A stretch of 64,000 nucleotides of DNA from NCBI GenBank assembly GCA_008632985.1, contig QPGO01000028.1:181598-245597 (forward strand), read 5' to 3'. The notes below the pieces were generated by a model. That model saw nothing but the letters and a program-made list of their open reading frames with translations, was not told the origin of the DNA and searched no databases. How positions within the stretch are numbered: position 1 is the first letter of the stretch; every line of letters begins with the position of its first letter. This DNA is from Psammoneis japonica. Taxonomy: Eukaryota. Positions 2,240 to 30,640 of this stretch are shown one piece after another. Both the position numbers and the translations under genes were made by a program.

Positions 2240-2685
2240 TCACCTCAATGTCAATTTTGCCATGTCTGCAAGAGCTGTGGCTCTTAATTTCTGTGTTAAC
2301 TCCAGAGCTTTTTTCTTCCCAACTCGCTGTGCAAACAATTGCAGCCATCCCCGAACCTCGTCATTCGCGCCTGCAATTCTTCCAATCTCAGCCAGGCGTG
2401 ATTCGCATTGTTCATCCGATTTTCGACCCTTGCATTCTTCCCTAGGACCAATGCAATGGTGCACTCGAAACAATGCTTCTGCACAGGAAACAAATGTGTT
2501 GTGAATGCACAGAGCGTCCGTCATGTGGTGGGGAGACCCCACTTTGCTTCCATCATAGCGCGAGGCATCCACCAGTGGTTTTCCTGGACATCTGTTCTGG
2601 TGTGGCTGATGACAGCGATGCCGCAGTGTGTGGAATTGATTTGGATCAAAGCCGTCCGGGACTTGGGAGTAAGTTTCATTGGAAG
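2240..2685 (-). pseudogene. 3' part of a glycosyltransferase (GT92/GT2-like) pseudogene split by the Copia insertion
   Basis: Reads SNETYSQVPDGFDPNQFHTLRHR..GKPLVDAS..LFRVHHCIG directly beyond the TSD; continues the fragment at 9904-10757 with a frameshift. Confidence 0.5.
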
Positions 2686-2973
2686 ACTTGGGATGCAACA
2701 ATGCACTGTGTGGGATGGAGAGTTCAGGACTCTCTTGAGGTTGTGCAATGCAACAGAGGATGACAAGAAGCAGTTTTGGGACAATGAGATGCGCCAAAGA
2801 TGCAAATTGTGAGAAGATCTCACGAGGGATTGGAGATGACATTGTGACCCAATGGTCGTGTGTGTCACTCCGATTGCTGTCGCTAGAAGACTCAACGGAC
2901 ATTTCTTCCGGAAGAAGAGATCCATGACCGGAAGCGTCATCCGTGAATCAGACTCGGTTGTTGACTCGTGACT
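2686..2973 (-). repeat. 3' LTR of Copia element 1
   Basis: Direct repeat of 9616-9903 with 8 differing dinucleotide sites; preceded on the minus strand by polypurine tract GGTTGAGAGGGAG. Confidence 0.95.
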
Positions 2974-3009
2974 CTCCCTCTCAACCGAAAAGAGAAGGAG
3001 AACTGTCAG

Positions 3010-6000
3010 TCACCAGCCCATGAGGGCTTTGCGACCAGCACGGAATAGATCAACAGTCAACCCTTTGGCAAACTGGTCAGCAAGCTGTGCAGCTGAGCTC
3101 ACAGGCTCAATTTTGATCTCCAAAGCCTCAACTTTAGCACAAAACCAATGGTGGGGAATGCCGATGTGCTTGGTTTGTGGGGACAATTTTGGCACACGGG
3201 CAAGTTGGAGGCAGGCAGCATTGTCTTCGTACACAACGGATGCTGGGAGGTCAGTGGAGTCAATGGGAGAATCCTCAGTTCCGTCGTTGGCGTGTCGGAA
3301 AGCCTTCGAATGTGTCGAAATGTCGGTCTGTCTGTCCGGCTGTCCGAAAACGAGCGCGTTGATTTCCTTCACGATCTCGCGAAGGGGGATGAGATCACGC
3401 ATCGCTTGGGAGAGGGCGACACACTCGGCTTCCATGGCAGAGAGTGCGACGAGGGTCTGCAACTTGGACACCCAGACAATCGGACATCCTGCATGACAAA
3501 TGACATGTCCCGTGCGTGACTTGACAGACGTGGGATCTTGTCCATCTTCAACACTGAAGAGTCCCGCGAAATCAGCATCAACATGGCAGTCGAGTCGTTG
3601 ATCGGCGGTTGGAGTTAGGATGAGTCCTTTATCGGCCGCATCCTTCAGGTGACGAAGAATGCGCTTGATGGCCGCAGCGTGGGAGGCCTTGGGTGCGCAG
3701 GAGAACCGTGCGACTTGATGGGTCGCGCAAGCAATGTCCGGGCGGCTGTTGGACGCTAGATGCATCATCATGCCGACCATGGAACGGCAGTCATGAGGCT
3801 CATCGAACGGTGGCCCGTCGGTGTCGCTGCCAGCAGGAGCAGGCAAGGCAGGAGTGGGTGCGCCGTTGCACTCAGTCATCTGTGCAGTGTGGAGAACTTT
3901 CTCAATTAGGCCGGGTTGGGTCAGGAGGAATCGGCCGTCTTCGAGCTTTTGAATCTTGATGCCTGGAAAGTTGCCGACTTCGCCTTCATCACGTAGATCA
4001 AAGACATGGCGTTGCTCATCGTTGGAAATGCCCAACTTGGCAATCTCTGCTTCCAAGGCTTGGGCCGATGCGCCGGCGAACACGGCATCATCAACATGTG
4101 CCACACACAACACACCCTTTTTGAAATAAAGACAAGGGTCAATGGCGGATTGAATCCATCCTCTTTCGAGCAATCCGTCCCTCAGCTTTTCATGGAAGCA
4201 CTTGGGAGACTGGCGCAGGCCGCACAGGCCTTTCAATGATTTCAGTGCCAGATCGGCGCCCGATTTTGGCTGGAAACCCTTGGGAGGCTCTACACAGACC
4301 TTCTCCTTGACATCAGCTTGGCAGAAGGCTGCAGTGCAGTCCACTTGACGTGCAGTCCAACCTTCCTTGAGCACCGTGGTGAGGAGAAGGCGCATGGACG
4401 ACCATTGCACTGCCGGCGCGTGGGTCTCGAAAAAATCGATCCCGTGTTTCTGTAAATCGCCGTGAACGCAATGTCGTGCCTTGCACTTCAAGGGCGTGCC
4501 ATCCGGGAGTCGTTTGAGTTTGAAAGCCCATGTGCCGGGTAGCACATTCACATCTGCCGTTCTTGGCACCATTTCCCATGCACGTCGGTGGAGCAGCACG
4601 TTGGCTTCAATTTTCACAGCCTCAACCCACTCTTCGGATTCATCGCTGCGCATGGCCTCGTGNNNNNNNNNNNNNNNNNNNNNNNNNNNNNNNNNNNNNN
4701 NNNNNNNNNNNNNNNNNNNNNNNNNNNNNNNNNNNNNNNNNNNNNNNNNNNNNNNNNNNNNNNNNNNNNNNNNNNNNNNNNNNNNNNNNNNNNNNNNNNN
4801 NNNNNNNNNNNNNNNNNNNNNNNNNNNNNNNNNNNNNNNNNNNNNNNNNNNNNNNNNNNNNNNNNNNNNNNNNNNNNNNNNNNNNNNNNNNNNNNNNNNN
4901 NNNNNNNNNNNNNNNNNNNNNNNNNNNNNNNNNNNNNNNNNNNNNNNNNNNNNNNNNNNNNNNNNNNNNNNNNNNNNNNNNNNNNNNNNNNNNNNNNNNN
5001 NNNNNNNNNNNNNNNNNNNNNNNNNNNNNNNNNNNNNNNNNNNNNNNNNNNNNNNNNNNNNNNNNNNNNNNNNNNNNNNNNNNNNNNNNNNNNNNNNNNN
5101 NNNNNNNNNNNNNNNNNNNNNGGAAGCCCGTGCCAGCTCCCTCTGTTTACGTTGAAGTTCTTCCGGAGTTGACCAATCGTCTTGAAGATGAATCGACTGG
5201 TCTTTTTCGAGGGGCATCTGGACACTTTGGTCCAGGCATGACTCTTCCCAGTGGCTTGGCGGCTCACTCTCCCTCGCGATCGAAGAGACGGCAGCAAAGA
5301 GATCGTCAAACACGACATGGCACTGGGGAGTGACGCTTCCTGTCTGAAGATTGAGCACAAGGGGCACCTCGCTGGAGTGGATGCTGCTCAAGCCGAGGAA
5401 GAGACCACGACGAGTGCGGGGTTGCCAGCGGGGCAATTTCTTGCCTTCTTGAAGTTTCGGATCAAGGACATAAACCGGACAGCCCCAGACGTGGACATCG
5501 CGAAGACCATGTCGGGGTGCAGCAGTGCCGGTAAAAATGTCCGTGGGGCAGCAGCCTTGAGCGTTGGGAGTCACGTCATAAATGTGCGTGGCATGAGACA
5601 CGGCCACAGGCCACAAAGAGCTGTCTGTGCCCCCCTTCCAACGGATGGATGCGTGGAGAAGCATCGCTCTCGCCATGTTGGAGACTGCAACGCCGTTCTG
5701 ATGGTGGGCGTTGGTTCCGCAAAAACGTAGACGTTGTTCGTGCTGTCGCATGTGTTGCACAAAAGCATTGGCCTTGAAAGCGCCAGAATCGGCAAGAAAT
5801 TCTTGGATGATGACGCCGTGGTCCATCGCGTGCTTTTCAAACGCTTGCTTCGCTCGCACCGTTTCCACAGCAGAGAAACCAAGTTGGTGTTCAATGTGTG
5901 GGTAACCGGAGGCATGATCCACAAAAATGCAGCCTCCTTTGTATTGCTGGGACGAGGCCTTCCCGCAGGAGTCGCAGGTTCGGCCGAGGAGACGGGATTC

Positions 6001-9000
6001 GAAGTGATCCACGCTGACGGCTTGGCCTGGGCGTAGATGCTCGGCTCGAAGAGCACCCTCACGCTCTGGAGTAGCCGCATGTTTGGCAGACTTGAGGGTT
6101 CGGCGATGTCCTTTGGCATGTTCGCACACCTCGCACCGCGGAATGTCGCAACGCGAAGCATGCTTGAATTTGGGTCGGAGAAAAGGTTCGGCCCGAAGCA
6201 GGCCTTGGATGCGTGGCACATTCAGGTGACCAAACCTGAAGCGCCATTCTTGAAGGAGCTTCTGACCGGAGGTGAGGTTCTGGTTATCCTCGTGCAACAC
6301 AGACAGATTGACTTGAGGAGCGGGTGCCACCCCGTTGGTCACAGACGCAACCGGCAAGTGATTTGACGCGTGCGCGACCTTGAGCGAACCGACGCCATCA
6401 ACATGCACTCGAAATGAGTCCTCGTCTCCCTCACATTTTCCTGTCACGCCATGTTCCTTGCTGTGGAGGCGTTGTGGGGATAGAAGACGTTGTCCGGCCT
6501 GAGGCACATGGTCCGCCATCGTCTTGACGACGAGCTCAGAGCCGTCCTCGTTGTGGAAAACCCAGGAGACGGGTCCGATGCCGGCGATGGTTAAGCCATT
6601 TGCTAGACCCCCAAGCTTCAATGGGCCATCAGGGATCGTCAGAGGTCCGACAAAGTCGTTTTCATCGTAAGTGATGGCCAAGGATGCGCCAGTGTCGCAT
6701 GTGACGGTGTGGCGCTCATGTGCCAGGCTCAGCAAAGCTTGCGGGTCGGCGGCGAGTTGTGCTAAAGAACGTTGGCCTGTCAATGCCTGCACAGAGGTGT
6801 GAGTGGGATGGGCTTCGGTTCCGTCAGCAGCTGCCTGGAGAAGCTTCACAGGGTCTTGCCATGGAGTGGTGTCCACGAAACCAAACTTGGTGGACAGCTC
6901 GTCGAAACGAAAACAGTCCGGAGAGAGCTCCTCAACCGTGTCAAAGCAGTGGCTCAGCTCGGTAGGGAGCGGGCCGAGGGCTTCCTCTGAATCACAGGTG
7001 TCGAAGTAGGACTCGGGGTCTTCTAGAGCTGGAGGGACACAGCAGCCTGGGGAAGAGCATGCATCGTTCTCCCAGAGCTGCGTGAATTTCTTGCTCAGAT
7101 GATGGTCCGGATCGCGCTCCACAAATTCGGCAAGCACTTGTCGCGCCTTGATCTTGTTGCATTCCACCAAACTGCCCGGATCTAACACTGTCTCATCGTC
7201 CAGTTCTTCAATGATCGAGTGGACCTGAGAGCCAGCTTTGGAGAAGCGAGAGGGGACATTGGAGAATGGATGCGTGGGAAGCTGACCGTTGAAAACAGAC
7301 GCCCAGACCATGATGGCTCCAGTCAGCACCATCCAGGTAGAGGGGAAACCGTGAATGGTTGGGATGAATGCCTTACGGCGCACACAACGAGGCAAGACAG
7401 GAATCGGCGCACAGCAAATGTGTGGCACCGTTTCCCAGAACACAGCAAACAGCCAGAAAACTCGGAGCTTCAAGAAGTTCCAGAAGAGCTCAAGACGAGA
7501 GCTCGGCGTTGCCTCCTCGATGCCACAATCAACATCTTGGGGTTCGGGATCATAAAATTCGAAACCGCGATGCTGGGTGCTTGGAGGTAAGTGCTCGTAG
7601 CTGTCTTCGAAAGGTGGGATGCTTGCCCCGGAAACGAGATCGTCTAACACGTCGTCGGACAGACCTTCCACGTGAGTTGCGATCGTGTCATAAAACACGT
7701 CCGGATTTTGAATCTCATGCACAGTGTGGGCCGGAAATAGCTCGATGGCTGACGGCAGGGAGTCAAAAGAGGAGTGAGCGTCGGAGCACTCGGAGTAATC
7801 GTCAGCGTCTTCGGGGTCAACCGTTTCAACCAAGATGGGAGCGGGTTTGGCCACGGCAGTCTCCCTCTCGGCCGATGGAGCAGGAGTGAACGTGACGGTC
7901 GTAGTCACTGGAGTCGAACTCAAAGAGTCGTCCACAGGTGCACACCACATGCCGCAATAAACCAGCTTGTTAGGGTCAGAGGGTTCGTCTGTAGGCGGAG
8001 ACGTCGTCTGCTTGGGAGGACCAAAAGGAATGCCCAAAGAGGGGTCCGACACAGCAGATAAATTTGCCGCAGCGGTGGTTTCGGTTTTGACAGACGGTTT
8101 CCCGGTGTGTTGAGCGGAGGAGTGGCCTTGACACATGCCCTTCTTGCCCGTTTCCTTGTTCACACACTTGTCGCACCAGTGCCAGGTCGTGCCTTTCTTG
8201 TCGGTGACAGTGGCACCTTTGTGAACGAAACGCCAGGCCGGCTTGGGTGGTTTCTTGGAAGGGTCAGTCTTCCGGACATCCGGAGGGTCATCCTTGGACT
8301 TGTCTGCCGTGCCCTTTTTGTCCTTCTTGCATTGCTCCTTGCAGGCAGGACACGTGCGTTTGGTGCACCCAACCTTGCCACAGCCGCAGCAATGCTTTTC
8401 CGAGTTGTCCTTGGCGAGGTTGGATTCCGGGAGCTTGGCTGCTAAGGCAGGCCAATCTTCATCGCTAATGAGTTCGCCATGGGTCTTGGTGATCCAGCCA
8501 ATGAGGCCAACAGGTCCAAGATCCGCACAGTCGGCATCCTTGGGGACTTCTGCCGGGTCACGCAAGCGACATTTGCGCTCCAAGCGCTTGACGGAGTCGA
8601 GCTTGGCAAAAACTTGACGATTGAAAAACTCGGAGGATGTCTTTGATGCCTCAGATAAAACAGTGGACCCAGTTTCAACTGGTGACGCACAGTCCGTCTG
8701 CATGATCTTGAGCAGGTGCAGAGCTTCGGTTGCAAGCTCGGTGCAGTCCTCGCCAGGGCAGGCATCCAGAGTTAAGTCGTTCAACTTTTCCTTGGCGGCC
8801 TTGACGTCAACCAGAGCACTGGCGTTGCAGGCATCCAGAGCCATCATAAATGAGACAGACCCCGGAAGATCCCTGCAGTTCTTCAAGTGATTGAACTTGG
8901 CTTCAATCTTTTCACGGAAGGTTTCGGTGACACGCGACTTGACGATGAGTTGTGACAAGCCGATGTCATCGATTTCACACTGATCGTAGCCTTCATCACC

Positions 9001-9462
9001 TGTGGCCGCCACACGGGTCTCACATTCCTTCTCAAGGTCTTTGACAGTGAAGGCGTGAAGATGATCAAAAAGGTGCACGACCTTGCCGTCGACTTTCTTG
9101 AGATGGTAGAAAGTTTCTTGTCCGTGCGACTCGACCAAGTCCTGAATGGTCTTGACAAAGTGGTCTTTGTCCAGTTCAGTGCTGGAACCGTTGGACAACT
9201 CAATCTGGCCGTTGAACTTGGATGTGGTTGCCGAAGCGAGTTGATCTCGGAGAGATGGATGGCGACGCTGCGAGGCAAAACGGCAGGTGCGGGTGTTGGT
9301 CTGCTCGCACTTGTTGTTCAGAGCCGAACCACCCAGATGCACTCCATGAGAGTGGTGGATGCCGCCGCGAAGCGGCGTGGGGATCGCAGGAGGGTTGGTC
9401 GAGGTTTGCATCTTGGCAAAGGCCTCAGCAAACATCTTGACGGCATCAGGATCCATGGACAT
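3010..9462 (-). pseudogene. Copia gag-pol polyprotein (Gag zinc knuckle, protease, integrase, RT, RNase H); open but mutated
   Basis: CCGCGKVGCTKRTC knuckle, DTGAS protease, GH..CEVC pre-integrase, VDHF..DSG integrase, KARHCVHGD / LCGLRQSP / HVDD RT, DADFAG / EAEC / EDNAAC / LADQFAK RNase H; spans an N gap. Confidence 0.93.
4663..5121. other. Assembly gap (459 N)
   Basis: Run of N between the integrase and RT regions. Confidence 0.99.
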
Positions 9463-9603
9463 GGTTGTGGATGATTCGACACAGAGGATCGATTAGCAGG
9501 CAGGGATTGCGACACAGAAGATCGCCGTTGGACAGGATGTCGTCTGCAACGAGACAAACGAGTGGCAGCAACTCCATCACGAGTTGACACCGGTGCATGG
9601 ATT

Positions 9604-9615
9604 GGGGTCGTAACC
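9604..9615 (-). promoter_or_regulatory. Putative primer-binding site (half-tRNA type)
   Basis: GGTTACGACCCC immediately after the 5' LTR; resembles the copia-type internal tRNA-Met PBS GGTTATGGGCCC, with mismatches. Confidence 0.5.
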
Positions 9616-9903
9616 ACTTGGGATGCAACAATGCACTGTGTAGGATGGAGAGTTCAGGACTCTCTTGAGGTTGCACAATGCAACAGAGGATGACAAGAAG
9701 CAGTTTTGGGACAATGAGATGCGCTAAAGATGCGAATTGTGAGAAGATCTCACGAGGGATTGGAGATGACATCATGACCTGACGGTCGTGTGTGTCACTC
9801 CGATTGCCATCGCTAGAAGACTCAACGGACATTTCTTCCGGAAGAAGAGATCCATGACCGGAAGCGTCATCCGTGAATCAGACTCGGTTGTTGACTCGTG
9901 ACT
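9616..9903 (-). repeat. 5' LTR of Copia element 1
   Basis: Direct repeat of 2686-2973; flanked by TSD GGAAG. Confidence 0.95.
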
Positions 9904-10757
9904 GGAAGGCTCTCGTTGTTTGCAAACAGAACACGGGGCAATGTCATGCACGGCTTGTCAAAATGCCAGCATCTGTTGGTGCGGTTCAACTCACTGGCTA
10001 AGCAGTGTGCCACCGTAGCCTCCCCGATTTTGGGAAGTCTTGAACGCGGATGCCCTCCCTTCTCAATGTCGTCCCGAAACTTCTTCATGCATGCAGCGCG
10101 TTCAGAAATGTTGACATGGCGACAGCAGGGACAAGCCACCTCTTTTTTGTCGCAGTCGTTAAAGACCCAATGCTCATCGGGATCAATTGGCACCGTCCAA
10201 GTTCTGTTCTGCCTCTTTAGGGAATTCAGACACGACTGAATAAATGCCTCTTGACATCGTAGAAACAGTTTTAGTCATTCTGTTCTGTCAGCCGAGGGGT
10301 TGACGCACTGTCCCTTGTTGAGATAATCTTCATCGTTCCACATTTCGATCGTCACATTTGGCAACGTGCGAAACTTCTCCAAAACCGGTTCTGGCGACAT
10401 TTTGCTGCAAGGATCTGCCGCAACAATCAAGTGACGAAGAGGCAGCACTTCACAACGACATGCTGTCCACTCTGGCAAGAGGTGATTGTCCTCCTTGACA
10501 ATGACACAAGCTGACATGTCAAACGGAAAATCAGATGGCAGCGAGGTGGGTGATGATGACAATGATTCGCAGTCTGTAGATTCACATCTGTCTTGGGTGC
10601 ATGGCAGTTGGAGCTCCACGTGAAAAGCACGGGTGAACAGGAAGATTGACAAACATGGGATGACGATCCACACCGGAAGTCTCTTGTTAAAAACAGCACC
10701 TCCCAGTCTCATGAGGGGCTTGTTCTTCTGTTTCGCGGTCTCTTCCGTGTTGATCAT
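9904..10757 (-). pseudogene. 5' part of a GT92/GT2-like type II membrane glycosyltransferase pseudogene
   Basis: N-terminal TM segment, SACVIVKEDNHLLPEW..PLRHLIVAADP, and WTVPIDPDEH (DxDE); internal TGA; Tyr replaced by Cys/His. Confidence 0.6.
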
Positions 10758-19467: not shown

Positions 19468-20012
19468 TTTTGCACCAGTGCCACCTGAAAATGAGGGCTG
19501 CAATGATTGCAGTCAATTGTGTTGACACCATTGCATGGACTCAATGGACGCTTGTGTCATTTGTCAATGGCTGTGTGCCCCGCATGAGAAAAATGATTTC
19601 TGGGTCTGCGTGATTTCCTCATTTGAAAAAACCTGGGTGTGGCACCCTGGTGTTTGGCGCCAAGACTGAACGATGTGGACACCCAGTGGTGTGCAGCCAT
19701 GGTGGGGCCAGTTGGCCATGCATGTTTGGGTTCGATGTGGTGCACAACTGGCCACACCTTGCAGGAAAAGCTGGTGGCAGCAAGTGGAAGCGCGAGACAC
19801 ACGCAACACCCTGAGACCTTGCTTCAAAGCAAAAGAACACGGTGTTGGTGAAGACGTTGTACAATGACATGACAACAAGTCATGAGAAGAACCCCAACTG
19901 GGCCAAGGAACTGAGTGCATTGATGTTGTTCAGCTGCTTTGATCTTGTCTGGAAATGCCTGCTCGCAGAGTCGTGAATGGTGCTCATGTGTTGCTCGCCG
20001 TGGCGCTGTTGG

Positions 20013-20451
20013 TGCAATGTGCAGCTGCTGACAAGAGCCAATGCATCACGGCGATGTGTTGCAGCCTTTAAATGTCACAAAGGGCATGACAAAAATGACC
20101 TTTTGTCTGCATGCATGCTGCATCATGAATTCACAGCGGAGTGGTTCATCGCAACCATTGGGCAGGAGGCCAGGGGTTCGAAACCCTGAGTGGGAGTTGT
20201 CTGCAGCAACGTTGATCACTGTCGAATGCGTAAAACTCTGTGCAGTTCTGTGTGTTCCTTCGTGCGCACCCACACTGTTCCGCCAAAACCGTGCAGTGTC
20301 AGTGCATGTTAGCAAAGAGCTGCATGGACGCGTGACACATGGGGAGGAGTGCAACACACAGCTGCCAACAAGAGCCAATGTGTCACGGTGACGTGTTGCA
20401 GCCTTTAAATGTCACAAAGGGCGTGACAAAAATGACCTTTTGCCTGCATGC
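20013..20451 (+). repeat. Two direct repeats of about 100 bp enclosing a tRNA-like A-box/B-box segment
   Basis: 20013-20115 matches 20350-20451; CAGCGGAGTGG (20134-20144) and GGTTCGAAACC (20175-20185) lie between them; GGGGAGGAG precedes the second repeat. Confidence 0.6.
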
Positions 20452-23400
20452 AAACTGCAGTTGTGCTTGTCATGCTGCTGTTGCGCGTGCAGGACGAGGT
20501 GTCCATTTCACCACCAGCGACTCTTTTTTGACAACAGCAGATGTTTTGCCACATCTGATTTGCAGACATTTTGAGAAGCACTTCATGGTGACTTTGTTTG
20601 ACCGTCAAACAGTGATTTTTTTGTCCAGATTCCAGAGTTGTTTTGGGGTGTTCTGTTGGATTTTTGAGTCACCACATGTGTGCATTGGAAGCATTAAAAA
20701 TTTCAATGACATGCAAAAGCATCAAGAATGTACAAAAATTTGCATTCCCTGCAGACCGCAAAGAATGTGTGCCAGCAAAAATCCACCGCATGTCAAGCCA
20801 CTCAGCAGTGATTCCATGCATTTTCTGCTTGCACCTCACACATGCCTGCACAGTCCAATGACCGTGCACAGCATGTGCAACATGAGGATTCAAATCAAAG
20901 TTTTTCACACAAAAAAGGTGATGTCAACGAGGACACCAACCTCTGACAGCGAGTGCTTGCACACGCAAAAGAGTCGGGTGCCTGTGATGTCTTCTGTTGA
21001 GGAGGAATTTGGCACATGCTCCAATCAGCTGGATGTGCCGACATGTCATGTGACCCAGTGCTTGTCTTGACATTCAAAGACCAACCAAATCCACAGCCAA
21101 GCTGCATCCAAGAAGAGACTCTTGCGTTCATTTGAGATCTGCTGCCACCAAATGGGGAGGGGGGGTGCAGCATTTTGTGAGTTGGGAACAAAACGCCACA
21201 AGAGACCCAGCAAGCCAGCAAGAGTTTGCACCCACCTCACTCTGAAACTGACACCACACCAGCGCAGATGAAAATTTCTCATGTTTTCAGCAAAGTGTGG
21301 CCAGAAACTGTGTCTTCTTGCACCAAACCAGAGTGCTTTTGACATCTCTCCATTCACTGCCGCAGCCAGCAAACACCAACTTTTCTGGGCTGCACCTGCT
21401 TCCCAGCTGCTGCTGCACTGTCAGAGATGGCTCAATTTGTGTTGCTTCACTGCCAGGGAGAGAGAAAGAAAGAGGGAGAAAGAGCTCTGTTGACAACCAG
21501 CCAGCACAAAGACTCAGGTTGAGAGTCTCAGAGGGGGCAGAAATGCTGGTGCAGAAATGCTGCAGAATGGAGAAGATGTTGTCAATGTGCAACACTTGCA
21601 CTGCTGCCCTGGCAGCATCACAGTCTTCATTGACAGCTGCAAGACACACTCACCAAGGTTGGTCACTTGGATCAACATGGAAGCAGCAAGCCACAATGAT
21701 GTGCCAGCCCACATGGCAAGCCAGCGGGCCAACATGAAGTGCGCAAGCTGCTGACTGCTGAGGATGAATTTGCACTTCAATTTAACCTGAGACATCATCA
21801 TCTCACAATGCATCCCCACGAGTCACAAGGAGACCCTTGCAATGCAAGTGTGGTGCTCTCCAGCCTGCTGCTGTCAATGTGCGTGCATGTGCAGATTGCC
21901 ACACAAGGAAAGGCAATGAGGTCCCAGAGATGAGCTGGATGTTCCTCTGGCAGAGCTCCAGCCAACCTTCAAAAAGGGTGAAAAGATTGTTGGTTTGCTT
22001 GCTGGCCAAATGAAAGATGAGACCAAATTCTCCAAGTCAACTCACCAAGGATGACACCCAACCAGAAGCCTTGTCAGGCTCACCTGCACTGCCCTTCTCA
22101 AGGTGTTGCAAGACTTGGATGGCCTCTTTTGCTTTGTTGATGTGGCCCACACGCTGTCATCAGTGCTGTCCCACCCCCAAAAGATTTGCACTTGCTGGGA
22201 TGCCCCACAGGCATCCAACCCACTTTGTGATCTCAGAGATGGCAGGAGAGCTGACAAGACTGAGATTTGGCAAGACTCTTGCACACAAGGATGACTGGAC
22301 ATCACAAGTGCCCCCCACAGCTTGATGCAACAACCAGAGCAGGAGCACCTCATCCAGCTTTGGCAAATCAACAAGACTGTGGCCAAGCTCAGCCAGAGTG
22401 CTGACAACCTTTGCTTGGTTTGCTGTGGGATTCCCCAAAATTTCCAGGATTGCTTCCTTTTGTCATGCTCTTTTCTGCAGGGAGCATGAGTTCCAGGGGA
22501 ATTGCCATGAGCACCATTTTGTTTTGCACAAACTGTGGACATGGATGAAATGAATGAACACGCTTGAAGCTCCCCAACTTCCCCTGCATGATTTGCCATG
22601 CACAGATGCCCACCTCTCATGCAGCACATTTCTGCATCATCTGCATGCCCAGAAGCATGGAGCCACATCATGCAAGTTGTGATGGCTTTGGTCAGTCAAC
22701 AATGACACCAGTCAATCTGGTCAACAGCATTGATGGGTTGTGACCTGCAGTGCAAAAGACAAGGTGAAGCATGATGTTTTGTGTGCAAAATGCCAGCACA
22801 ACTGATTGTTGGTTTCTTGCGTGTGTTGTTTCTTAAAAAATGCAAACCACAAGGCATCTTGAGTGAAGGCCATTGTGAGTGCAGAACCTTGACATCGCAT
22901 GGTCAACAAAAAATGTGGCAGATTGGACAGTCTCATGTGTGTCACTCCCTTTGACATGTCTCATGTGCAGAGTGCAGAGGATCATTTTGTCATTCTTGCT
23001 GTGTCTTGCAGCCACAAATGTAAACCATGAGGAGTCTGGAGCAAAGGGTGAGGCCACAGATGCACTTCCAAAAGCCACAAGATCAGATGCACACAAAGAA
23101 AGAACAAGGAAAAAGTGGCAACATGAGCAACATTGGCACATTTGTCAGTCACTCCCACTCTTTGTCTGTGTCTGTTCATCTGATGTCATGTTGGTTGGGT
23201 GCAAATTGAAAAGCCTCATTTGCCCATGATGAGCAACCTTCCATCTCAGGCCACAGCACACCTCCTTTAACAACATGAGAGTCAATCCCCGCCTGACAGG
23301 GGCTGCAAAACATGGGTCAAGCTCTGCCACCCTTTGTGGCTAATTGAGAGCAGAGGTGGGCACTCTCTTTTTGGATGATGAACTTGAACATGGCAGAGAC

Positions 23401-23939
23401 CCAGGTGAATGGCAGTGCACAATGTGCATGTGTTTTGGGGGGGGGGACAAGGAGGGAGCAGAGCAGATGGCTTCATCAACATGATGCCAAGGGGCAAAGT
23501 GTGCAGCATTTCAGCCAACAAAAAGCAAGCCTTGAGTCCTTCAAATCAAGGTGCATGTTGGCAAAAATGTGCCTGGGTTGGCTGATTGTGAAGTGGCAAT
23601 GCAAACAGTCATGGCACTTTTAGCACAAGCAAGAGACACAAGCATGGAAGGATGCAGGCTCTGCTTTGCACTGTCAGCTTTGGCACACATTGCCTTTGAC
23701 CAGTCTTGGTTGAGTCAAAAGGAGAATGTTCTTGTTTGCTTTGTTCCAACACAGTGCACAAATTTGGCGCAGGCAACCAATGTTAGTGCAGGCTCGTCAA
23801 TGTGCTCAAAACTGTGCCCTGGCAAAGAGCTGAGCTCATGGCTGAAGTGGATGGCAACCCAGAAAAATGGGGAAAAAATGACTGCATGTGCTTTGTCATG
23901 TGGTGTGTGCTTTTCTGTTGCAACAGTGGTTTTGCCGCA

Positions 23940-23940
<1 letters not shown>

Positions 23941-23970
<30 letters not shown>
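23941..23970. repeat. (CTG)10 microsatellite
   Basis: Direct reading. Confidence 0.95.
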
Positions 23971-23971
<1 letters not shown>

Positions 23972-25775
23972 AGTTGATCTGGTTGCTTTTGCATGTTGTG
24001 GATGGATGAAGAATGGGGCGCGACGTTGTCATGTGAAAATGTGCATGCCTGCTCATTGAGCCAACAGCACTGCAGATCAAAATTCAGCTCATTTTTTTCA
24101 AACTCAATCCACCATCAAAGCCAACACAGCAACAAAGCAAAAAAGACAGGCTGTGCCAATGCAAAAGGCATCACATGGTGTTTGAGATGATCGCCAGCTG
24201 GCTGTTGCCTTGCTTGCCCCTGATGGCTCTGGCAGTCATGCACCTGGCTGACTGTCTGACAATGCCAGGGGTCAGACAAGATGCTGACATCAAAAAGAGT
24301 GAGAGCAAGACACAGGCAGCATTGCAGTCAATGGCTCAATGTTCAAAGTGTCCGCCCACCCAAAAAAGTGACATCAGCAAAAGCTCAAGCTGCCTTGCTC
24401 AGCCCAGAGCATTGCATGATGTCCATGGTCAATGAATCCTGTGGCAATGACGCATGATGTGGGGACAATGTTGACCCTCCCTTGTGTCTGAAACAATCAA
24501 AATGGAAGGAGTTTGTTGTGCCAAACTGCTCAGAAAATTGAGCTCTCACGTGATGGATGGTTCATCACCTGGAGCCAGAACAGGCCTGCCCAGAGCACAT
24601 TGTCAGAGCTCTGCTTTTCTCTGGGGAAGCTGTGGCAGCCATTTTGTTGCCAGCTGTGAGGCTGGGACAAAGTCAGCAGCACGGAGCTTTTTTTTTACTG
24701 GGTTTAAGAAGAAGCAGCTCTGAGAGCCAACAGCAGCAACCACAATGTCCAAAAGGGTGGGTGGCTGGTTAGATTCAGCAAAATCACCTGACAAAAACAC
24801 AGGATGCCAGGCTTCTTGCAATGAGCTCCACCAGAGATTTTGCCTGTGGAGATTTTAAGGGCCCTCCAGCTGCTGGAGAGTTGTCTTTTTGGTCACCTGG
24901 GAAGCGCACAATGGGGGTCATCGTGCCACTCAACTCCCCAGCGTTCAGAAGAAAGAAAATGCTCAGACACTGATGAGTTTTGCATGCAAAATTTGACACC
25001 GAGCTGCGTGCGCAATCCCATGCATGTGGACCTTTTCATTGGTGTCTGAGCTCTTTGTTCCTTCCAGATTGCAAGATGCTTTTGGTCAATTCAAGCCGGC
25101 TCAAAATGCTTTTTGCAAAAAGGTCAAAAAATTGACAAAATTTGCGCAATGCTGCACACCCCAGCACCTGACATCGACATCATGCTGGTGCAACTGCAAG
25201 CCAAAAAACTTTTTGAAACAAACATCCCAAAAGCAGGAAGTGAGCACCACAATGCTTCTGTTGACAAAGTCCACAACAAGGCGCGTTCCACCTCCAGGTG
25301 GGACCTTGCACTGCTGAACTGTGACATCAATGGTTTTTTGGATTGCACCACATGTCAAACACGCAGAAAGATGTGCGACTTTTTTCAAATTTTGCATCAT
25401 TTTGTGGTGCACTTGTTGAGTGATCCATCCAACAACTTTTGACATTTTTTGTTGCAGCGCAATTCTGTGATGTCTTAAAATTGCGCAGGGTGCAGGCGCA
25501 TGATTTGCAAAAATGTCGAGTGGCAAGAGGCACAATTGCACCCCTGTGCAAGTGCTTCCATGGGATGCAGGTGGGTGTGGTGTGTGATGACATCATCACA
25601 TGCATTGAGTTGCACATGTTGACATTTGCGCTGATGCTCACATGTCATTGAGCAACAGCTCCCATCCCATGGCACCCCCAATTCTCTGGCCACGAAACAC
25701 TGGGGGCAAGAGTTGACCATTTTTCACCCATTCTCACACAGTGCAAACAACGTGTGTCACATCAACTCCACCATG

Positions 25776-28700
25776 ACAATGTCTCCTCCTTCATCTCCAA
25801 CGTACACTGACAATGCTGCCCATCCCTTTGGTGACTCCACCATGCCCATCATGGATGACAATGCCATTGCTCCAGCTGTCGTGACCCAACCACACCAGAT
25901 GCATTGCGGTCCGGAAGATGTCAACCATTTTTCTCCCGATCCAGTGCCTTTCGTGCAGTCTCAAGGCCAAAGTTGTTCCACCCCGGTTGTTGCATTGCCT
26001 GAACAACTTTCTTTGAAGCACTTGCATGAAGTCATGTTCGGCGATGTTGAACAGGGGCTGGAGTGCAGAAGTTTGCAACTTTGTGCAACAAAAAAGAAAC
26101 AAAAGACAAAGTGTGTGGTCAAGGTGGTGCTCAATCCCTCCACCATGCTCTCTTTTCTCCACAACCCCACTGTCAACGAGTCCATTTCTTTGGGGTCTTT
26201 CTTGCCTCCTGACACTCCCAACCTTGTCAAACAGGCAATGCACAATTTTGACATAAAGCAACAACCTTGGCCTCAGAAACAAAGCAATGCAAATGACAAG
26301 AAGATGTGCAGTGCTTCCAGGCCCCCACCAGCACCATCTGGATCCACCAAGTGCCCCCCTTGTCATGACAAATGGAGCAAGGCAATCCCTCACGTTTCTT
26401 GGGACTCACCTGTGCTGCAAGATCTTCTCACCTGCCACTGTCAACGGTTGCTTTTGGAGGATGTCCTTCGGCTGCCGGTCAGCTTGGACATTGCACTGTG
26501 GATTTCTTCTGCCCATCCTGCTTTTTCATTGACATGGAAACCGTTGCTTGACACAGTTTGTGCTTCGGCACCTTCGTCTGCTGTTTGCATCAGCAAAGAG
26601 CACTTCTGCATGGTTCAAGCTGCAATTGCCAAAATCCAGAACAACAAAAACTCATTGGTGGTGGTGAATTGTCAGCCAGCGATGTGCAACACCTTTGCAC
26701 TGAAAGTGGTGGTGATGCAGTTGCAATCGCTCCTGTGGCTGCGGCATCTTCTGGTTGCAAAATCAAGCACTGCAATTTGTTTTATCATGGGGCAACCTTT
26801 CACGTTTGGGTGGCGCAGCCATGCAACAACCACCCAAAATTGCAGTTGGAAAATGTGCCTGATGCAAACTGACGTGCCGCCATGTTCCAGTGCTGCATGC
26901 GGGAGCCATGGGGTGATGGCCATGCCGTGCATTTGTTGTGTTGTGAGCATGACATCTTAATCCAGAAAGACAAGGAGGATGAGGAGCGCAAACATTGCAA
27001 AAATGCCGAGATGTCAACGGAATGGATTCGCAAATTGTTCGCCATTGATCCGAAGGCTCCCAACTTCCAAGCCTTCTGCGCTTTTGTGGAGGGCACCTGT
27101 GAGCAGGCGATTTGTGTGTGTTTTGGACACTTCACCCATTTGACGTCTCCCATTCTCATGCAGGCTGTGGTCCAGGAAATGGCAAAATGGTTTTGCAAAA
27201 CTGTGCCACAACACTGTGTTGTGTTGAGCACCCTGTTGAGCTGTGAGATGCACCAGTGCAACACCAGGAAGCAGCATCTCCTGCCTCTTTGAGATCGCTT
27301 TGTTTTGTGCATCTTCATGTCCATCATGCACATCTGCAATCCATGCTTGTTTTCCTGGTGGGCATGCTGCAACACTGTGGCGTCGCGTGAGTTGTTGGAC
27401 TCAACATCTTGATCAAAGCTTTCTGTGTGTTTCAGTCAGGCCACCATTCAACAAACTCTCCTGCGCAAGTGTCATCCATTTTTGAACTGTGCAATGGCAA
27501 TGGCCTCCACCAACCAAACATTGAAGGGCTCTGGCAACTTTGGCGTTGCCATTTTTGACAATTCCCAGGTGCACATCAACCAATGTGTTGCCTGCATTGA
27601 TGCATTTGTCTCTCACGCCACTTTTCTTCTTACTTCCATTTTGGGTGGTTGAGTCTCTTAAGTGCCAATGTGGGTGCCAATCCTTGACGGTTGCAAAGAC
27701 TGTGTCACACATGTTCATCAAGCCATGTGTGCTGCCCAAGTTTCATTTGTGTCCGACCGCACTTTCTCTGAAGCCCAAAACCACCATGTGGGTCACTGCA
27801 TTCCATCTCCCTTTGGCATGCCTGCTTGCAAGCTGCAGGACTCTTTGTTGCGTGCCGATGCTTCCATTCTGGACTTTCACAACTCCAACGAGTTCTTGGA
27901 ATCCGCTGACAGCATGGGTGTTAGAGTGTCTTGGCATGCCTCACTTGTAATCCTCGCAACAAGTGCCCACTTGCACCACCAGTGCATTCCGCACAAAGGC
28001 GTTGTCTTCCAATTTCAGCATGAGTGCAGAAAAGAGACCATGCAGCAAATTGGTGGGGCATGCCTTCACATGTCTCTGCACTCATTCCTCCTGTGTCATG
28101 TGAGAATTGAGACCATGAGCAAAGGTGCCGGCAAGGTTGCACTTGGATTGATGCAGCTCTTCAACATCTTAGAAGCAACGTTGTCCAAAGGGGTTTCAGG
28201 TGATTCCATCAAGGATCTTTGCCTTGGTGACGGATGCCAGAATCATCACTTGATGACAGTTGGTGATGGCCTGTCGCAAATGTGTGTGAAGGCATTTTGC
28301 ACTCTCATCCAAATGTCTGCCTGCAGCCACATTGACCACCATGTTGCTGCAGGAGTCTTTGAAAAAGCCATGGAACAAGTGATCAATGCGACAGGAGATC
28401 TGCATGGCAGTGGCTTCCATTTCCTTGGGGCTGTTTGTGCGCTGTTCTGTGGGTTGCTGCTGCAGCCGTTTCAGGCGGTGCTTGGGTGGAAGTGGATGCA
28501 AGGTGCAGATGTGATGAAGTGCCATCAACAGGCCGCTGGAATGGCTGTAATGACACTTTCGGGAATCAAGCATCAACTCTTTTTGATGGTTTGGGTGCAC
28601 GTGTGAAACACGGATGAGCTGCAAAGCAGGTGGATGGCTTTGTCAGATGCTGGAGAGCATTCCATGTTCACAGCATGTGAGCACAAGCACTGCTGGGTGG

Positions 28701-28800
28701 ACATTCGGATCAAGGTTGGCTCCGACAAAGTGCATCACATGTCGCTGCCATTCATGATGCTCATGTGTCACTGTCATTTGTTTCAGCATTTGGTTTGATG
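25776..28800 (+). pseudogene. Putative Academ/DUF6589-like transposase relic
   Basis: Frameshifted ORFs containing GVAIFDNSQ, HVRIETMS, TVGDGLSQ and TGDLHGSGFHFL, the acidic and GxLH motif pattern I associate with this family. Confidence 0.55.
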
Positions 28801-28811
28801 TGGCAATGCCG

Positions 28812-29698
28812 TCATGAGGAAACAATCCGGCCAGTGCAAGTTGCAGTCATGAGTGGGAAGGGCATTGAAGCGATGGATGGCAGGTGAGTGAAAAAGCATT
28901 GGGGCAGCTCCTTGAATTTGGAATGAAAGGACAGACCAAAGCTGACAAAAAGATGGACTTCATCAAGAGCAACAAGCCGCAGCAGACCCTGGTGTGCAGT
29001 TGAGAGAAGGAATTGCAACAGCTCTTCAGTGGCGACAATCAACTGAGGCAAGGCAAACAGGAATGTGGGCCCATGAACCGGCACCATCCGTTGCTGCAAC
29101 CGGCCCATCCTGTCAAAAAAACATTTCATGTGATTTGAATTTTTAGATGTTTTGTCCAAATGAAATGATGTGACCGGGCCATGTTGTTGTTGTTGTTGTG
29201 TGGCTCTTGTCATAATTTTGCAGCATTGATCCAAACCAAGGGACAAAAGAAGGACAATGGCAAGGATTGCGCCATGGCGGCAGACGCCGACGATGTCACG
29301 GACAAGGGATTTGCCACCTCCTGTGGGGCGCACTGGCAACAATGGCTGGGCTTGTTGATTTTGCATTGAAAAAAGTGGTTTGGAGCCAACCTCAACCTGC
29401 CACCTGAAAGGTTGCTTGCCAAAGACATCAACAGAGACATCGATGAAGGTTTGGGAGAATGTTGTGGGTGGCTTTGTAGAGGTTGCGCAGATGCATTGTC
29501 TGTGTGAGGCATTGCAGCAGCTGAAAAACGGTGCAAGTTGTTGCAGTGTAACACCAGCAATGATGCACTCTTGACAGTGCTAAAAACCACATCACCTGAT
29601 TCAGCAGATCCATTGTGGTTGGCACCAATGGGACTCGCATCAGGGGATGGCATTGACGATGCTCGCTCGACATCATCATGGAAAGTTGTTGTTGACAT
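28812..29698 (-). pseudogene. RecQ-like SF2 helicase N-terminal half, truncated
   Basis: PTGGGKS (motif I), LLSLGLDQ (Ia), LVALDEVH..GLSF (motif II plus RecQ aromatic loop), MTAT (motif III). Confidence 0.85.
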
Positions 29699-30414
29699 GT
29701 GTCATTTGTGTGTTGTGCAAGAGGCGAAAAATGGTCAACTCCTTCCCTCAGTGTTTGGTGGCCAGAGAATTGGGGGAGAGCATGGATCAGGATTTTCCCT
29801 GGTGCTGTGAGCATTTGTGCACAAATGCTTGATTTTGTCAAATGACAGCAAATGAGATTTTTGATGATGTCTAAATTGCATCACCATGCCATCACATCCA
29901 TGCTCTTCCCTTGCACAGGGGTGGCACAATTGCACCACAAACTTGGTTGTTCATTTGATGTTGAAGACAAATGTGTCCATCAACTAAATTCTTGCACTGC
30001 AGAGCTCACACGTAGAATTCTGTGGGCCCAATGTCACACGGAGTCCCACCCAGGACTGGAGCCCATCACAGCAAACATCAAAACAGATGGAAACAACATG
30101 GCAGAATTGACTCTTGCCATGAGCACAAAGAAACACCCAACAACCTGCCAGCTGGACCTTCAAAATCTGCTCCAACTGCAATCAACCATGGCACGCCAAC
30201 TCTGGTTGTTCCAACTGTTGTCTCATGTTCTCATTGATGTGCAAGATTGGACTGTGCATCAAAATCTTGTCCAAATGCAATGCAGCAAATGCAGTCCAGC
30301 CGCCATGTTCCCTCTTGTGGCAAAAGTGCAGTGCTTTTTCGAAATTTCTTGATTTGCGAAAAAGCGTCTTGAAATCTGGGAGGGAGTCAGAGGTCGGAGT
30401 TGTCCCAATTGAAA

Positions 30415-30640
30415 CACACAGTGTTGGTTGATGACAACCCATTGGGTTTTTTGGCTGATCCTGAGAATGGCACACCGGTGTTGAGTTTTTACGACGATGC
30501 ACGTGACACGATGTCACCGGCCATCCTGAATTTGTCACATGAACCAGATCAAGAACGTGACATCCAGCCAACGTTACATTCACAGTTCCGTCTCCATCAT
30601 GCATTGAATGATTTGTTGAATGGTCATCCATTTGCGGGAT
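30415..30640 (+). pseudogene. Captured C-terminal fragment of an FCP1/SCP (NIF) phosphatase gene
   Basis: TVLVDDNPLGFLADPENGTPVLSFYDDARDT..LNL..DIQPTL matches the NIF C-terminus; no upstream DxDxT motif; begins right after a repeat end. Confidence 0.7.

Follow-up and report, generated by a model that had tools for sequence, protein, structure and literature searches.

The LTR retrotransposon near the left end of a 64,000-nucleotide stretch of Psammoneis japonica DNA (contig QPGO01000028.1, positions 181,598 to 245,597; hereafter the window) raises the question of how the two LTRs of one element come to read TG in one copy and CA in the other at the same site, when such changes are made and from which ancestral dinucleotide they start. 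We consider it likely that a post-integration process that converts TpA to CpA or TpG, accompanied by slower CpG decay and regional in its reach, has acted on this Ty1/copia element. The features of the window that bear on the question are collected in Table 1.

Table 1 Features of the window, with positions counted from its first base.
Feature	Position	Strand	Basis or remark
Target-site duplication GGAAG (left)	2681..2685		Read from sequence; matches the 5 bases beyond the other LTR
3' LTR in the element's sense, 288 bp	2686..2973	-	96% identity with 9616-9903, gapless
Polypurine-tract-like run GAGAGGGAG (minus strand), adjoining the 3' LTR	2974..2982	-	Putative function; kept in the diverged copy at ~56.4-57.0 kb
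gag-pol frame, 2160 codons, Ty1/copia order, open yet heavily mutated	3010..9492	-	ORF and Pfam
Primer-binding-site-like TGG... stretch, sharing the last LTR base	9599..9616	-	No tRNA match
5' LTR in the element's sense, 288 bp	9616..9903	-	Pairwise alignment with 2686-2973
Target-site duplication GGAAG (right)	9904..9908		Same 5 bases as 2681-2685
Largest TpA-poor block: rho(TA) 0.04-0.07, rho(CA+TG) 1.67-1.93, rho(CG) 0.07-0.45	20001..36000		Dinucleotide scan
Second LTR element, LTRs 35374-35649 and 38816-39091, TSD AGAGT, without RT, internal 42-bp tandem array	35369..39096		Alignment, repeat search
Diverged fragment of a related element, 69-71% identity, part of the LTR and the pol end	56434..56968	+	Weak outgroup
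Host-like control genes: K+ channel ORF 59722-61113 (+) and LanC-like ORF 61742-62992 (-)	59722..62992		Pfam matches

The element and its two LTRs

The LTRs are a true pair from a single insertion, flanked by a target-site duplication (TSD), and a contig from run X2 in which the right flank is joined to left-flank-like sequence with a single GGAAG represents a paralogous or allelic empty site of the element. Within the gag-pol frame, Pfam matches RVT_2 at residues 1638-1883 (E = 2.6e-32) and SH3_retrovirus at residues 1331-1397, with a weak match to Pol_BBD; the rve integrase core gave no Pfam match, and 153 codons between SH3_retrovirus and RVT_2 are N (a 459-N run at 4663-5121). An RVT_2-type RT with the integrase-associated SH3_retrovirus domain upstream of it, together with the paired LTRs and the TSD, identifies the element as Ty1/copia, and the YxDD motif of its RT reads HVDD. 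Like the CoDi-type Ty1/copia elements of diatoms (PMC2806351), it combines a long copia polyprotein (2100-2300 aa) with RVT_2, a 5-bp TSD and LTRs; unlike theirs, its LTR ends read AGTC...AAGT in the element's sense rather than the canonical TG...CA of Ty1/copia, and the diverged copy ends in the same way. The closest relatives share 57-61% identity, one of them a protein of Fragilaria crotonensis, and no sibling protein above 61% was found among the proteins searched (1188-3780 aa and 30-301 aa). The family is high-copy, with a word depth of 1000-7000 versus ~60 in the flank, a ratio that suggests tens of copies; an exact LTR 30-mer had no match in metagenome contigs, and no tRNA genes lie within the 64-kb window.

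Alignment of 2686-2973 with 9616-9903 spans 288 columns without a gap and contains 12 differing columns, which resolve into the same 8 sites that a sequence-only reading of this DNA had listed: four TG/CA doubles (columns 59-60, 158-159, 165-166 and 193-194), two sites with TA in one LTR and TG or CA in the other (columns 27 and 110) and two with CG versus CA or TG (columns 119 and 168). That reading had also reported no further substitutions or indels and had set this alignment as a test for many other substitution types; none occur in this pair, and all 12 differing columns are transitions inside a YR dinucleotide. YR dinucleotides hold 134 of the 288 LTR positions, and the probability that all 8 sites fall within them by chance is ~2e-3 even if transitions were the sole type of change and ~9e-6 if half of random changes are transitions; chance would produce no adjacent double changes such as the four seen here. 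The window contains another, unrelated LTR pair with TG...CA ends, which gives the same picture: 15 of 15 differing columns are YR and fall into 11 sites, four of them TG/CA, five TA versus TG or CA and two CG versus CA. Pooled, the two pairs provide 564 aligned columns without any non-YR change.

Since the changes separate the two LTRs of one insertion with an intact TSD, they postdate insertion, as the sequence-only reading had proposed. Its further claim that double-stranded DNA was the substrate also holds: TG and CA stand at the same site in opposite LTRs, and along the coding strand TA>TG and TA>CA changes are balanced (19 versus 15; binomial p = 0.61). RNA and cDNA editing of retroelements is well known in animals, which speaks for changes made before integration, whether by ADAR-type A>I editing of RNA, APOBEC-type editing of cDNA or an error of reverse transcriptase. 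The reported preference of ADAR for a 5' U (bioRxiv 10.64898/2026.01.13.699255) would also suit it. Changes of this origin are expected to be common to both LTRs or one-stranded; those observed distinguish the LTRs and occur on both strands, and the intact TSD argues against LTRs drawn from different insertions. With both strands changed, sense-strand RNA editing, single-strand cDNA editing and RT error are ruled out, as had been concluded earlier for RNA editing and RT error, and the probability that we attach to pre-integration editing as a whole is practically negligible.

Another explanation regards the changes as artefactual, introduced by assembly or base calling where TpA carries a modified base, such as a modified T read as C. 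It would be compatible with the presence of no more than 57% of sampled element words in run X1 and with several rows of the X1 table for which no contig carries the window's letter. A systematic miscall predicts the same call at a given site, whereas the LTRs show opposite calls, and the double miscall CG is absent (no TA/CG pairs and no Tyr>Arg). Furthermore, the TpA-poor flank 10005-10400 is recovered in a single-copy X1 contig (depth 61) that departs from it at 2 of 396 bases, although X1 may be the assembly's source sample and hence not independent, and 294 of 913 contigs from runs X1-X3 share 99% or more identity with the window. An artefact is extremely improbable on these grounds.

Direction of change

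The sequence-only reading had interpreted each TG versus CA site as one ancestral palindrome changed on opposite strands. Our data support this interpretation and favor TA as the ancestral palindrome at most sites. To compare codons, we used an alignment of the C-terminal 1150 residues with 71 homologs. At 22 conserved-Tyr columns, the window copy has His at 8, Cys at 6, Tyr at 4, Phe at 2, and Trp and Ile at one each, with no Arg; His or Cys fills only 25 of 1731 Tyr-column cells in the control homologs, none of which has more than 2 (Fisher p = 1.5e-19). Conserved Arg is replaced by Cys, His or Gln at 3 of 32 columns of the window copy, which is inside the control range of 0-3. The codon comparison finds deviations at 93 of 535 conserved columns, consisting of 19 TA>TG, 15 TA>CA, 6 CG>CA, 2 CG>TG, 4 CA>CG, 3 other transitions, 23 transversions and 21 multi-step changes. 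Among the 49 polarised single transitions, 34 are TA>CA/TG, 8 are CG>CA/TG and 4 are CA>CG; none creates TA from CA or TG.

The LTRs point the same way. The pooled states of both pairs are TA/TA 4, TA/x 7, CA/TG 8, CG/x 4 and CG/CG 31, with TA/CG at 0. A TA origin of the TG/CA doubles is fitted with p = 0.70 and q = 0.059 and is ahead of a CG origin by a dlnL of 22.25, in a likelihood test that supposes uniform CpG mutability and would be weakened by a mixture of hypermutable and immune CpGs. The diverged copy (69-71% identity) reads CA, TC, CA and TG at the four TG/CA sites of the first pair and gives no polarity there; it is informative at only 2 of the 8 sites, with TA at column 110, which supports an ancestral TA, and CA at column 168, which is consistent with an ancestral CG.

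These results bear on CpG methylation decay as the sole cause, according to which every variable site was once a CpG, deamination of 5-methylcytosine produced TG or CA, and TA arose by a second change. Cytosine methylation is reported for diatom transposons (PMC9998398), CG versus CA or TG differences are present, two in each LTR pair, and CpG is depleted in the same blocks as TpA. A comparison with family contigs likewise leans toward CpG: among 19 internal sites of difference from the window copy, 9 are CG in the family, 3 are TA and 1 is TG (window TA), with 2 TG/CA doubles and 4 others. CpG decay thus exceeds TpA loss among these best-supported internal differences, which derive from the 21 internal rows among the best-supported 40 of 192 variant places, none of them inside an LTR; we tentatively read the CpG excess in this subset as a selection of sites where siblings agree. 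Against CpG decay alone, TA is lost and not made (0 CA>TA or TG>TA versus 34 TA>CA/TG among the 49), conserved Tyr has become His or Cys at 14 of 22 columns compared with the 3 of 32 for Arg, rho(TA) is 0.04-0.17 in repeats, and under uniform decay the 8 visible doubles are far too many beside 31 CG/CG and 4 CG/x (dlnL -22). We therefore regard this explanation as very unlikely. Ancestry in TA for most sites follows from the replacement of Tyr by His or Cys, the 34:8 ratio of TA to CG changes, the likelihood difference of 22 and the depletion of TA with gain of CA and TG; the two CG versus CA or TG sites of the first pair are ordinary CpG decay.

Strength and regional pattern of TpA loss

Approximately 70% of TpA and 6% of CpG are converted per LTR copy, and other sites not at all. 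Three independent estimates of TpA loss agree, namely the LTR pairs (0.70), the conserved-Tyr codons (14 of the 18 that read Tyr, His or Cys, or 0.78) and the depletion in rho(TA), which is 0.15-0.17 in the window element versus a median of 0.65 across 80 related elements of other origin. Per base, and as a historical lower bound, TpA changes at a rate 226 or more times above the 95% upper bound for background and outpaces CpG ~20-fold. The depletion does not characterize the family as a whole: at conserved Tyr, each of 12 relatives tested has no more than one His and one Cys versus 12/14 in the window copy, and the signature is absent from the sole environmental relative with low TpA (L043), in which 13 conserved-Tyr columns contain Tyr at 8, His at 0 and Cys at 1.

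Across the window, TE-rich blocks have a rho(TA) of 0.04-0.1, whereas values over host genes are 0.5-0.7, with 0.69 at 60-62 kb. The total YR fraction stays constant at 0.24-0.25 as its split among TA, CA+TG and CG moves from 18/61/21% to 1.4/91.5/7.1%, and rho(TA) correlates with rho(CA+TG) at a Spearman coefficient of -0.90 and with rho(CG) at +0.88. The cut-offs of the Bigelowiella natans preprint discussed below (rho(TA) ≤0.43 and rho(CA+TG) ≥1.52) capture 33 of 63 1-kb windows, and the block at 20001-36000 is a long-term footprint of the TpA process. None of 15 deviations over 148 conserved columns of the LanC-like host gene is TA>CA/TG. The host genes match diatoms, by which a dinoflagellate host with 5-hydroxymethyluracil was set aside, as was B. 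natans, against which the long single-exon form of the host-like ORFs also speaks. Duplicated DNA in the window lacks the pattern: a 105-bp tandem copy (14538-14749) has 4 differing columns and no YR transition, and at 81% identity a 2.3-kb duplicate is without YR excess (65 YR transitions, 100 other transitions and 112 transversions); repetition alone thus seems not to be a trigger. The TpA that remains is several-fold commoner in TTA/TAA than in ATA/TAT, a comparison whose denominator mixes ancestral and derived TG and from which we draw no motif.

This regional pattern could in principle follow chromatin state without dedicated targeting, as would be the case if an untargeted chemical or repair bias made TpA hypermutable genome-wide and genes seemed spared through better repair or selection. 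The close coupling to CpG depletion fits a heterochromatin effect. Yet the contrast between neighboring DNA within 64 kb, at least 200-fold, far exceeds known repair and chromatin effects, and host-gene regions hold their rho(TA) of 0.5-0.7 along the whole length, not just in constrained codons. Moreover, TpA mutations in B. natans, at ~1000 times the genomic rate, are reported from some lines only (bioRxiv 10.64898/2026.01.13.699255) and are regulated in the reading of the authors. We judge an untargeted bias to be unlikely.

Known systems and a proposed mechanism

The signature is in print only for the integrated viruses of B. natans, in a 2026 preprint, and the LTR retrotransposons of this window are a further case. 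For two viral regions integrated in the genome, new mutations arising in B. natans mutation-accumulation lines are reported as A>G/T>C in 210 of 211 and 20 of 20 cases, all at TpA (bioRxiv 10.64898/2026.01.13.699255). Of the 49 polarised transitions here, the 34 TA>CA/TG and 4 CA>CG are of this type, against 8 CG>CA/TG, which are C>T/G>A, and TA-linked classes prevail in the LTR pairs. As described for that integrated NCLDV and virophage DNA (Mettrop et al.), changes are near-exclusively A>G/T>C, all at TpA and yielding TpG or CpA by strand, they are limited to foreign or repeated DNA, and the footprint is a clustered TpA depletion with CpA+TpG gain. The two cases differ in host, a chlorarachniophyte there and a diatom here, from different supergroups, and in target, which here includes LTR retrotransposons and whole TE-rich blocks, whereas the main text of the preprint does not contain "LTR" or "retrotransposon." Depletion is far deeper here, with rho(TA) of 0.04-0.17 versus a reported 0.45 in the NCLDV region, and the evidence here is historical, from LTR pairs and codons, whereas new mutations were observed there. 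We found no literature report of TpA hypermutation in diatoms; "dinucleotide," "RIP" and "deamination" are absent from the main text of a paper on diatom Ty1/copia elements (Maumus et al. 2009; PMC2806351), and another diatom transposon paper lacks the same three words as well as "TpA" and "hypermutation."

Fungal RIP is also a post-integration, DNA-level process of dinucleotide-specific transitions that ruins transposons to near saturation and leaves genes alone. Its direction is the reverse: RIP is reported to create TpA from CpA by C>T (PMC2621366), whereas TpA is destroyed here and GC content rises. The CpA>TpA hallmark of RIP accounts for 0 of the 49 polarised transitions, and TpA is depleted, not enriched. 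RIP is triggered by duplication; here the element family is high-copy, yet the 2.3-kb duplicate of the window has no YR excess. CpG decay, presumably through methylation, is a minor component here. It has affected ~6% of CpG in each LTR copy, makes up 8 of the 49 polarised changes and has lowered rho(CG) to as little as 0.07 in old blocks; it is ~20-fold slower than TpA conversion and unable to yield TA-linked differences or Tyr>His/Cys. Finally, animal ADAR and APOBEC editing shares deaminase-type transitions, a neighbor-base preference and the inactivation of retroelements, but acts before integration on RNA or single-stranded cDNA and marks one strand, unlike the post-integration changes on both strands seen here.

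We propose that integrated double-stranded element DNA meets a process that would convert TpA to CpA or TpG, each event being a single transition, T>C or A>G, on either strand of the TA palindrome; since conversion destroys the palindrome, a site would undergo one event and never proceed onward to CG. A second process, ordinary CpG decay to TpG/CpA at an ~20-fold slower pace, would give the CG versus CA or TG differences, and the TG versus CA sites would descend from an ancestral TA in most cases and from CG in a few, changed on opposite strands in the two LTRs. The TpA process acts regionally: little TpA is left in the TE-rich blocks of the window, whereas host genes are spared. The data establish the pattern, its direction, action on both strands, timing after insertion and regionality; the agent behind it would be an enzyme aimed at silenced or foreign DNA, either a deaminase that attacks adenine in TpA or one that modifies thymine to a base mispairing with G. 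These two are inseparable by sequence because TA is palindromic. By analogy with TpA hypermutation of integrated viruses in B. natans, the process may serve as genome defense. The chances appear to us evenly balanced that a dedicated "reverse RIP" exists in diatoms, or in this lineage at the least, as an enzyme system converting TpA to CpA/TpG in silenced or foreign double-stranded DNA, on either strand and once per palindrome, at several hundred times background. Given the same signature in a rhizarian alga, such a system could represent an ancient genome defense of the SAR supergroup through DNA adenine deamination or thymine modification.

Several consequences follow for the reading of such genomes. 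LTR-divergence dating fails, since the divergences of 4.2% and 5.4% are wholly YR, with none outside YR dinucleotides. An open frame, however long, does not indicate an intact gene, since the process eliminates TAA/TAG stops and creates none; the 2160-codon frame stays open despite the lost catalytic Tyr of its RT. Homology-based transposon annotation is degraded as well. LTR pairs, in turn, provide a clean natural experiment, which proves that the process works on DNA that is integrated and double-stranded, changes either strand and strikes each site once. So far described for a single alga in a preprint of 2026, the process is here extended to a second, ecologically dominant group, with LTR retrotransposons as targets. 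A regulated, possibly widespread AT-to-GC genome defense gains credibility from this extension, which opens a comparative route to the enzyme. If true, "reverse RIP" would remove Tyr codons along with TAA/TAG stops and destroy transposons before any ordinary substitution had time to occur, and its enzyme could be sought by comparing species with and without the signature.

The first LTR pair and its Ty1/copia element

The first LTR pair bounds a single insertion, flanked by a 5-bp GGAAG duplication, with the domain order of Ty1/copia: RVT_2 (Pfam, E 2.6e-32) lies downstream of an integrase-associated SH3_retrovirus domain. In a contig from X2, one of the sequencing runs compared with the window, the right flank joins left-flank-like sequence with a single GGAAG, a related empty site; the flank at 9904-10400 is itself present in a few copies (word depth 186-319 versus ≈60 for a single-copy contig), and its X2 version is diverged and element-free. 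Among the matches listed, the nearest proteins are copia polyproteins of 2100-2300 aa (57-61% identity), and the one named protein among the closest relatives is from the diatom Fragilaria crotonensis. An in-frame run of 459 N (153 codons) lies between the integrase region and the RT region, and the main frame is assumed to stay open across it. The catalytic Tyr of the RT YxDD motif reads His (residue 1799), and the window copy is therefore dead despite this open frame. In element sense, the LTRs of this family end in AGTC...AAGT rather than the usual TG...CA, as also found in a diverged third copy.

Coordinates of the features discussed, with LTR columns counted in the pairwise alignment of pair 1
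Feature	Position	Strand	Remarks
Ty1/copia element	2686-9903	minus	purine run adjoins 3' LTR; TGG... stretch after 5' LTR
LTR pair 1	2686-2973; 9616-9903
GGAAG duplication	2681-2685; 9904-9908
Open frame	3010-9492	minus	2160 codons
N run	4663-5121
TG/CA doubles, pair 1	columns 59-60, 158-159, 165-166, 193-194		n=4
TA-containing sites, pair 1	columns 27; 110		TG vs TA; CA vs TA
CG-containing sites, pair 1	columns 119; 168		CA vs CG; TG vs CG
Second LTR element (LTRs)	35374-35649; 38816-39091		TG...CA ends; TSD AGAGT
42-bp tandem array	36062-37103		inside second LTR element
Third copy of pair 1 family	56434-56968
105-bp tandem copies	14538-14749
Collinear matches	10116-18947; 41740-46640
2.3-kb duplicate	16602-18947; 44448-46640
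LanC-like gene	61742-62992		single exon

Pairwise alignment of the pair 1 LTRs gives 288 columns without gaps, 12 of which differ, at eight sites; all are transitions within pyrimidine-purine (YR) dinucleotides (TA, CA, TG, and CG), with no other differences, confirming in full the sequence-only reading of four TG/CA, two TA, and two CG sites. Since YR dinucleotides cover 134 of the 288 positions, this restriction has P ≈ 2e-3 by chance assuming transitions exclusively, or P ≈ 9e-6 with transitions as half of random changes, and is thus not due to chance. Because the two LTRs of a single insertion differ, the process acts after integration; it also hits both strands, with TG facing CA at the same site and a 19 versus 15 split on the coding strand (p = 0.61). 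Both had been claimed from the sequence and are upheld, as is the exclusion of RNA editing and RT error: the geometry of the LTR differences rules out pre-integration editing.

A second LTR element, unrelated to the first, lacks RT and looks non-autonomous; its tandem array comprises 17 registers with 62-81% identity to the reference. Its LTRs differ in 15 columns at 11 sites, all YR transitions (four TG/CA, five TA versus TG/CA, and two CG versus CA), and for the two young pairs together 27 of 27 differing columns are YR transitions. Within a single 64-kb window and two LTR pairs, the pattern is general. Among 26 pairs from self-BLAST, counted after removal of self-hits and self-palindromes, mirror duplicates, and the tandem array at 36.0-37.2 kb, the older ones are mixed, with totals of 467 YR transitions, 333 other transitions, and 427 transversions, and several pairs within TpA-poor DNA are still about two-thirds YR. 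There are two exceptions. The 105-bp tandem copies (96% identity) differ in four columns, none a YR transition; they are the sole young repeat of the window off the pattern and sit in already TpA-poor DNA. The 2.3-kb duplicate (81% identity) carries 65 YR and 100 other transitions alongside 112 transversions; it is the core of collinear matches at 71-81% identity, which indicate an old segmental duplication, and has an observed/expected ratio, rho(TA), of ≈0.5 and a weak helicase-associated-domain match. This core shows no YR-transition excess, and duplication alone therefore does not seem to attract the process.

Ancestral state and direction of change

A TG/CA double can be modeled as arising from TA or from CG. 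Together, the two LTR pairs give the states TA/TA 4, TA/x 7, CA/TG 8, CG/x 4, CG/CG 31, and TA/CG 0; TA never becomes CG, so a given palindrome is struck once. Under a model in which copies are hit independently, strands are equally likely, and half of the double hits are invisible, TA origin fits, with q(CG) = 0.059 and p = 0.70 per copy, whereas CG origin would require q = 0.26 and fits much more poorly; dlnL favors TA by 10.96 and 11.64 per LTR pair and by 22.25 pooled, in a test that presumes equal mutability at every CpG and is hence indirect. Two further independent estimates are in line with this p: among 18 conserved-Tyr codons reading Tyr, His, or Cys, 14 are converted (0.78), and the element has a rho(TA) of 0.15-0.17 versus 0.18-1.01 (median 0.65) among 80 related elements from the environment, and thus has lost ≈3/4 of its TpA. 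With no non-YR change across the 564 LTR columns of both pairs, the TpA rate per base is ≥226-fold the upper 95% bound on background and ≈20-fold the CpG rate.

We polarized the changes by deep conservation, using the best 71 of 120 listed homologs (P0002-P0072) over the C-terminal 1150 residues and taking as conserved any column with one residue in ≥70%. Tyr (TAY) converts to His (CAY) by TpA>CpA and to Cys (TGY) by TpA>TpG. Of the 22 columns with conserved Tyr, the window copy retains Tyr at 4 and reads His at 8, Cys at 6, Phe at 2, Trp at 1, Ile at 1, and Arg at none, versus His/Cys in 25 of 1731 cells, and at most two per protein, when each of the 71 controls is compared with the rest (Fisher p = 1.5e-19). 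Conserved Arg shows no unusual loss in this copy (3 of 32 columns versus 0-3 in controls). Scored by codon, the 535 conserved columns include 93 that deviate: TA>TG 19, TA>CA 15, CG>CA 6, CG>TG 2, CA>CG 4, and a further 3 transitions, 23 transversions, and 21 multi-step changes, with no TA-creating change among them. The process targets TpA, in the direction TA>CA/TG.

In the RT-RNase H part alone, conserved Tyr is kept at 0 of 14 columns (6 His, 6 Cys, 2 other), and each of 12 relatives tested from the 80 (seven among the lowest in TpA, three closest, two high in TpA) has 0-1 His and 0-1 Cys there. The sole low-TpA copia relative of the 80, L043 (1-1776; rho(TA) 0.18, CA+TG 1.59, CpG 0.10), keeps Tyr in 8 of 13 columns, with no His and one Cys; its TpA depletion is therefore of another cause, or far weaker. 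As a control, the host-like LanC gene deviates at 15 of 148 conserved columns, never by TA>CA/TG, and has Tyr in six of eight conserved-Tyr columns and His/Cys in none. Its named relatives are nearly all diatoms (Seminavis, Amphora, Cylindrotheca, Cyclotella, Thalassiosira, Epithemia, and a Bacillariaceae MAG; 39-46% identity), with two arthropod names ranking lower and a best unnamed match of 55%. The host is thus most probably a diatom, one lacking a close sequenced relative among the proteins searched, and not Bigelowiella natans.

Comparison with read contigs yields 192 variant places, 156 of them transitions. The run X1 is possibly the assembly's own source and hence not independent. Of the 40 best supported, 21 (19 sites) fall within the element; a high-depth family contig reads CG against TG or CA of the window at 9 of the 19, TA at 3, and TG for a window TA at 1; two more sites carry the opposite double, and the last 4 differ in other ways. 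CpG decay thus exceeds TpA loss among these 19 sites, which counts against TpA dominance; the best supported places are presumably those where siblings agree, and TpA-derived sites would be expected to be heterogeneous among siblings. The proposed ancestral palindrome hit on opposite strands stands, and likelihood and codon polarization support TA as its usual identity, with CG at a minority of sites.

Regional depletion and related systems

Over the whole window the observed/expected ratios are TA 0.23, CA 1.56, TG 1.54, and CG 0.57, with a patchy distribution: rho(TA) falls to 0.04-0.1 across long stretches (20-36, 40-42, and 54-56 kb) and is 0.5-0.7 where host-like genes lie (48-52 and 58-62 kb). 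The process is regional. The total YR share of dinucleotides is constant at 0.24-0.25, and its TA/CA+TG/CG split shifts from ≈18/61/21% over genes to 1.4/91.5/7.1% across the block at 20-35.3 kb. Over 63 1-kb windows rho(TA) correlates at -0.90 with rho(CA+TG) and +0.88 with rho(CG); TA and CG palindromes both drain into CA/TG. In TpA-poor blocks (1-2600, 9904-12000, 20001-35300, 40001-42000, and 54001-56000), surviving TpA is several-fold commoner in TTA/TAA (TA/(TA+TG) 0.06-0.08) than in ATA/TAT (0.012), which may reflect a flanking-base preference or a refractory context.

In mutation-accumulation lines of B. natans, two integrated viral regions mutate ≈1000-fold faster, with 20/20 and 210/211 changes being A>G/T>C, every one at TpA; that genome has 124 clusters whose windows are TpA-poor and CpA+TpG-rich, TpA-poor genes are enriched for reverse-transcriptase Pfams, and an ADAT2-like DNA adenine deaminase is proposed (bioRxiv 10.64898/2026.01.13.699255). 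As far as the main text of that preprint describes them, the sequence-level features are all found here, and 33 of 63 windows pass its thresholds, whereas host, target class, and depth of depletion all differ; that main text does not mention LTR, retrotransposon, or diatom, and its supplement may list retroelements. Fungal RIP has a similar purpose but the opposite direction, which excludes membership, and CpG decay is present in the window as a minor component. Within the limited literature searched we found no report of a TpA process in diatoms; the diatom transposon sources examined do not mention dinucleotide, RIP, or deamination, nor, in one of them, TpA or hypermutation. Judged from one window and two LTR pairs, the present case adds another instance of a kind of hypermutation previously described once.

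Probably an enzyme directed at foreign or silenced DNA either turns the A of TpA into inosine or converts the T to a derivative that pairs with G; TA being palindromic, sequence does not separate the two. The coupling of TpA loss to CpG depletion suggests methylated, silenced sequence as the target. The window holds 34 stop-to-stop frames of ≥200 aa (e.g., 25635-26960, 35716-37182, and 27662-28606), and 7 of the 13 scanned lack a Pfam match. Conversion of TA to CA/TG removes TAA and TAG and never makes stops, which accounts for the openness of the 2160-codon frame and for the many other long frames that are family-less; the latter are probably "ghost" frames, which gene finders would over-call in TpA-converted DNA.
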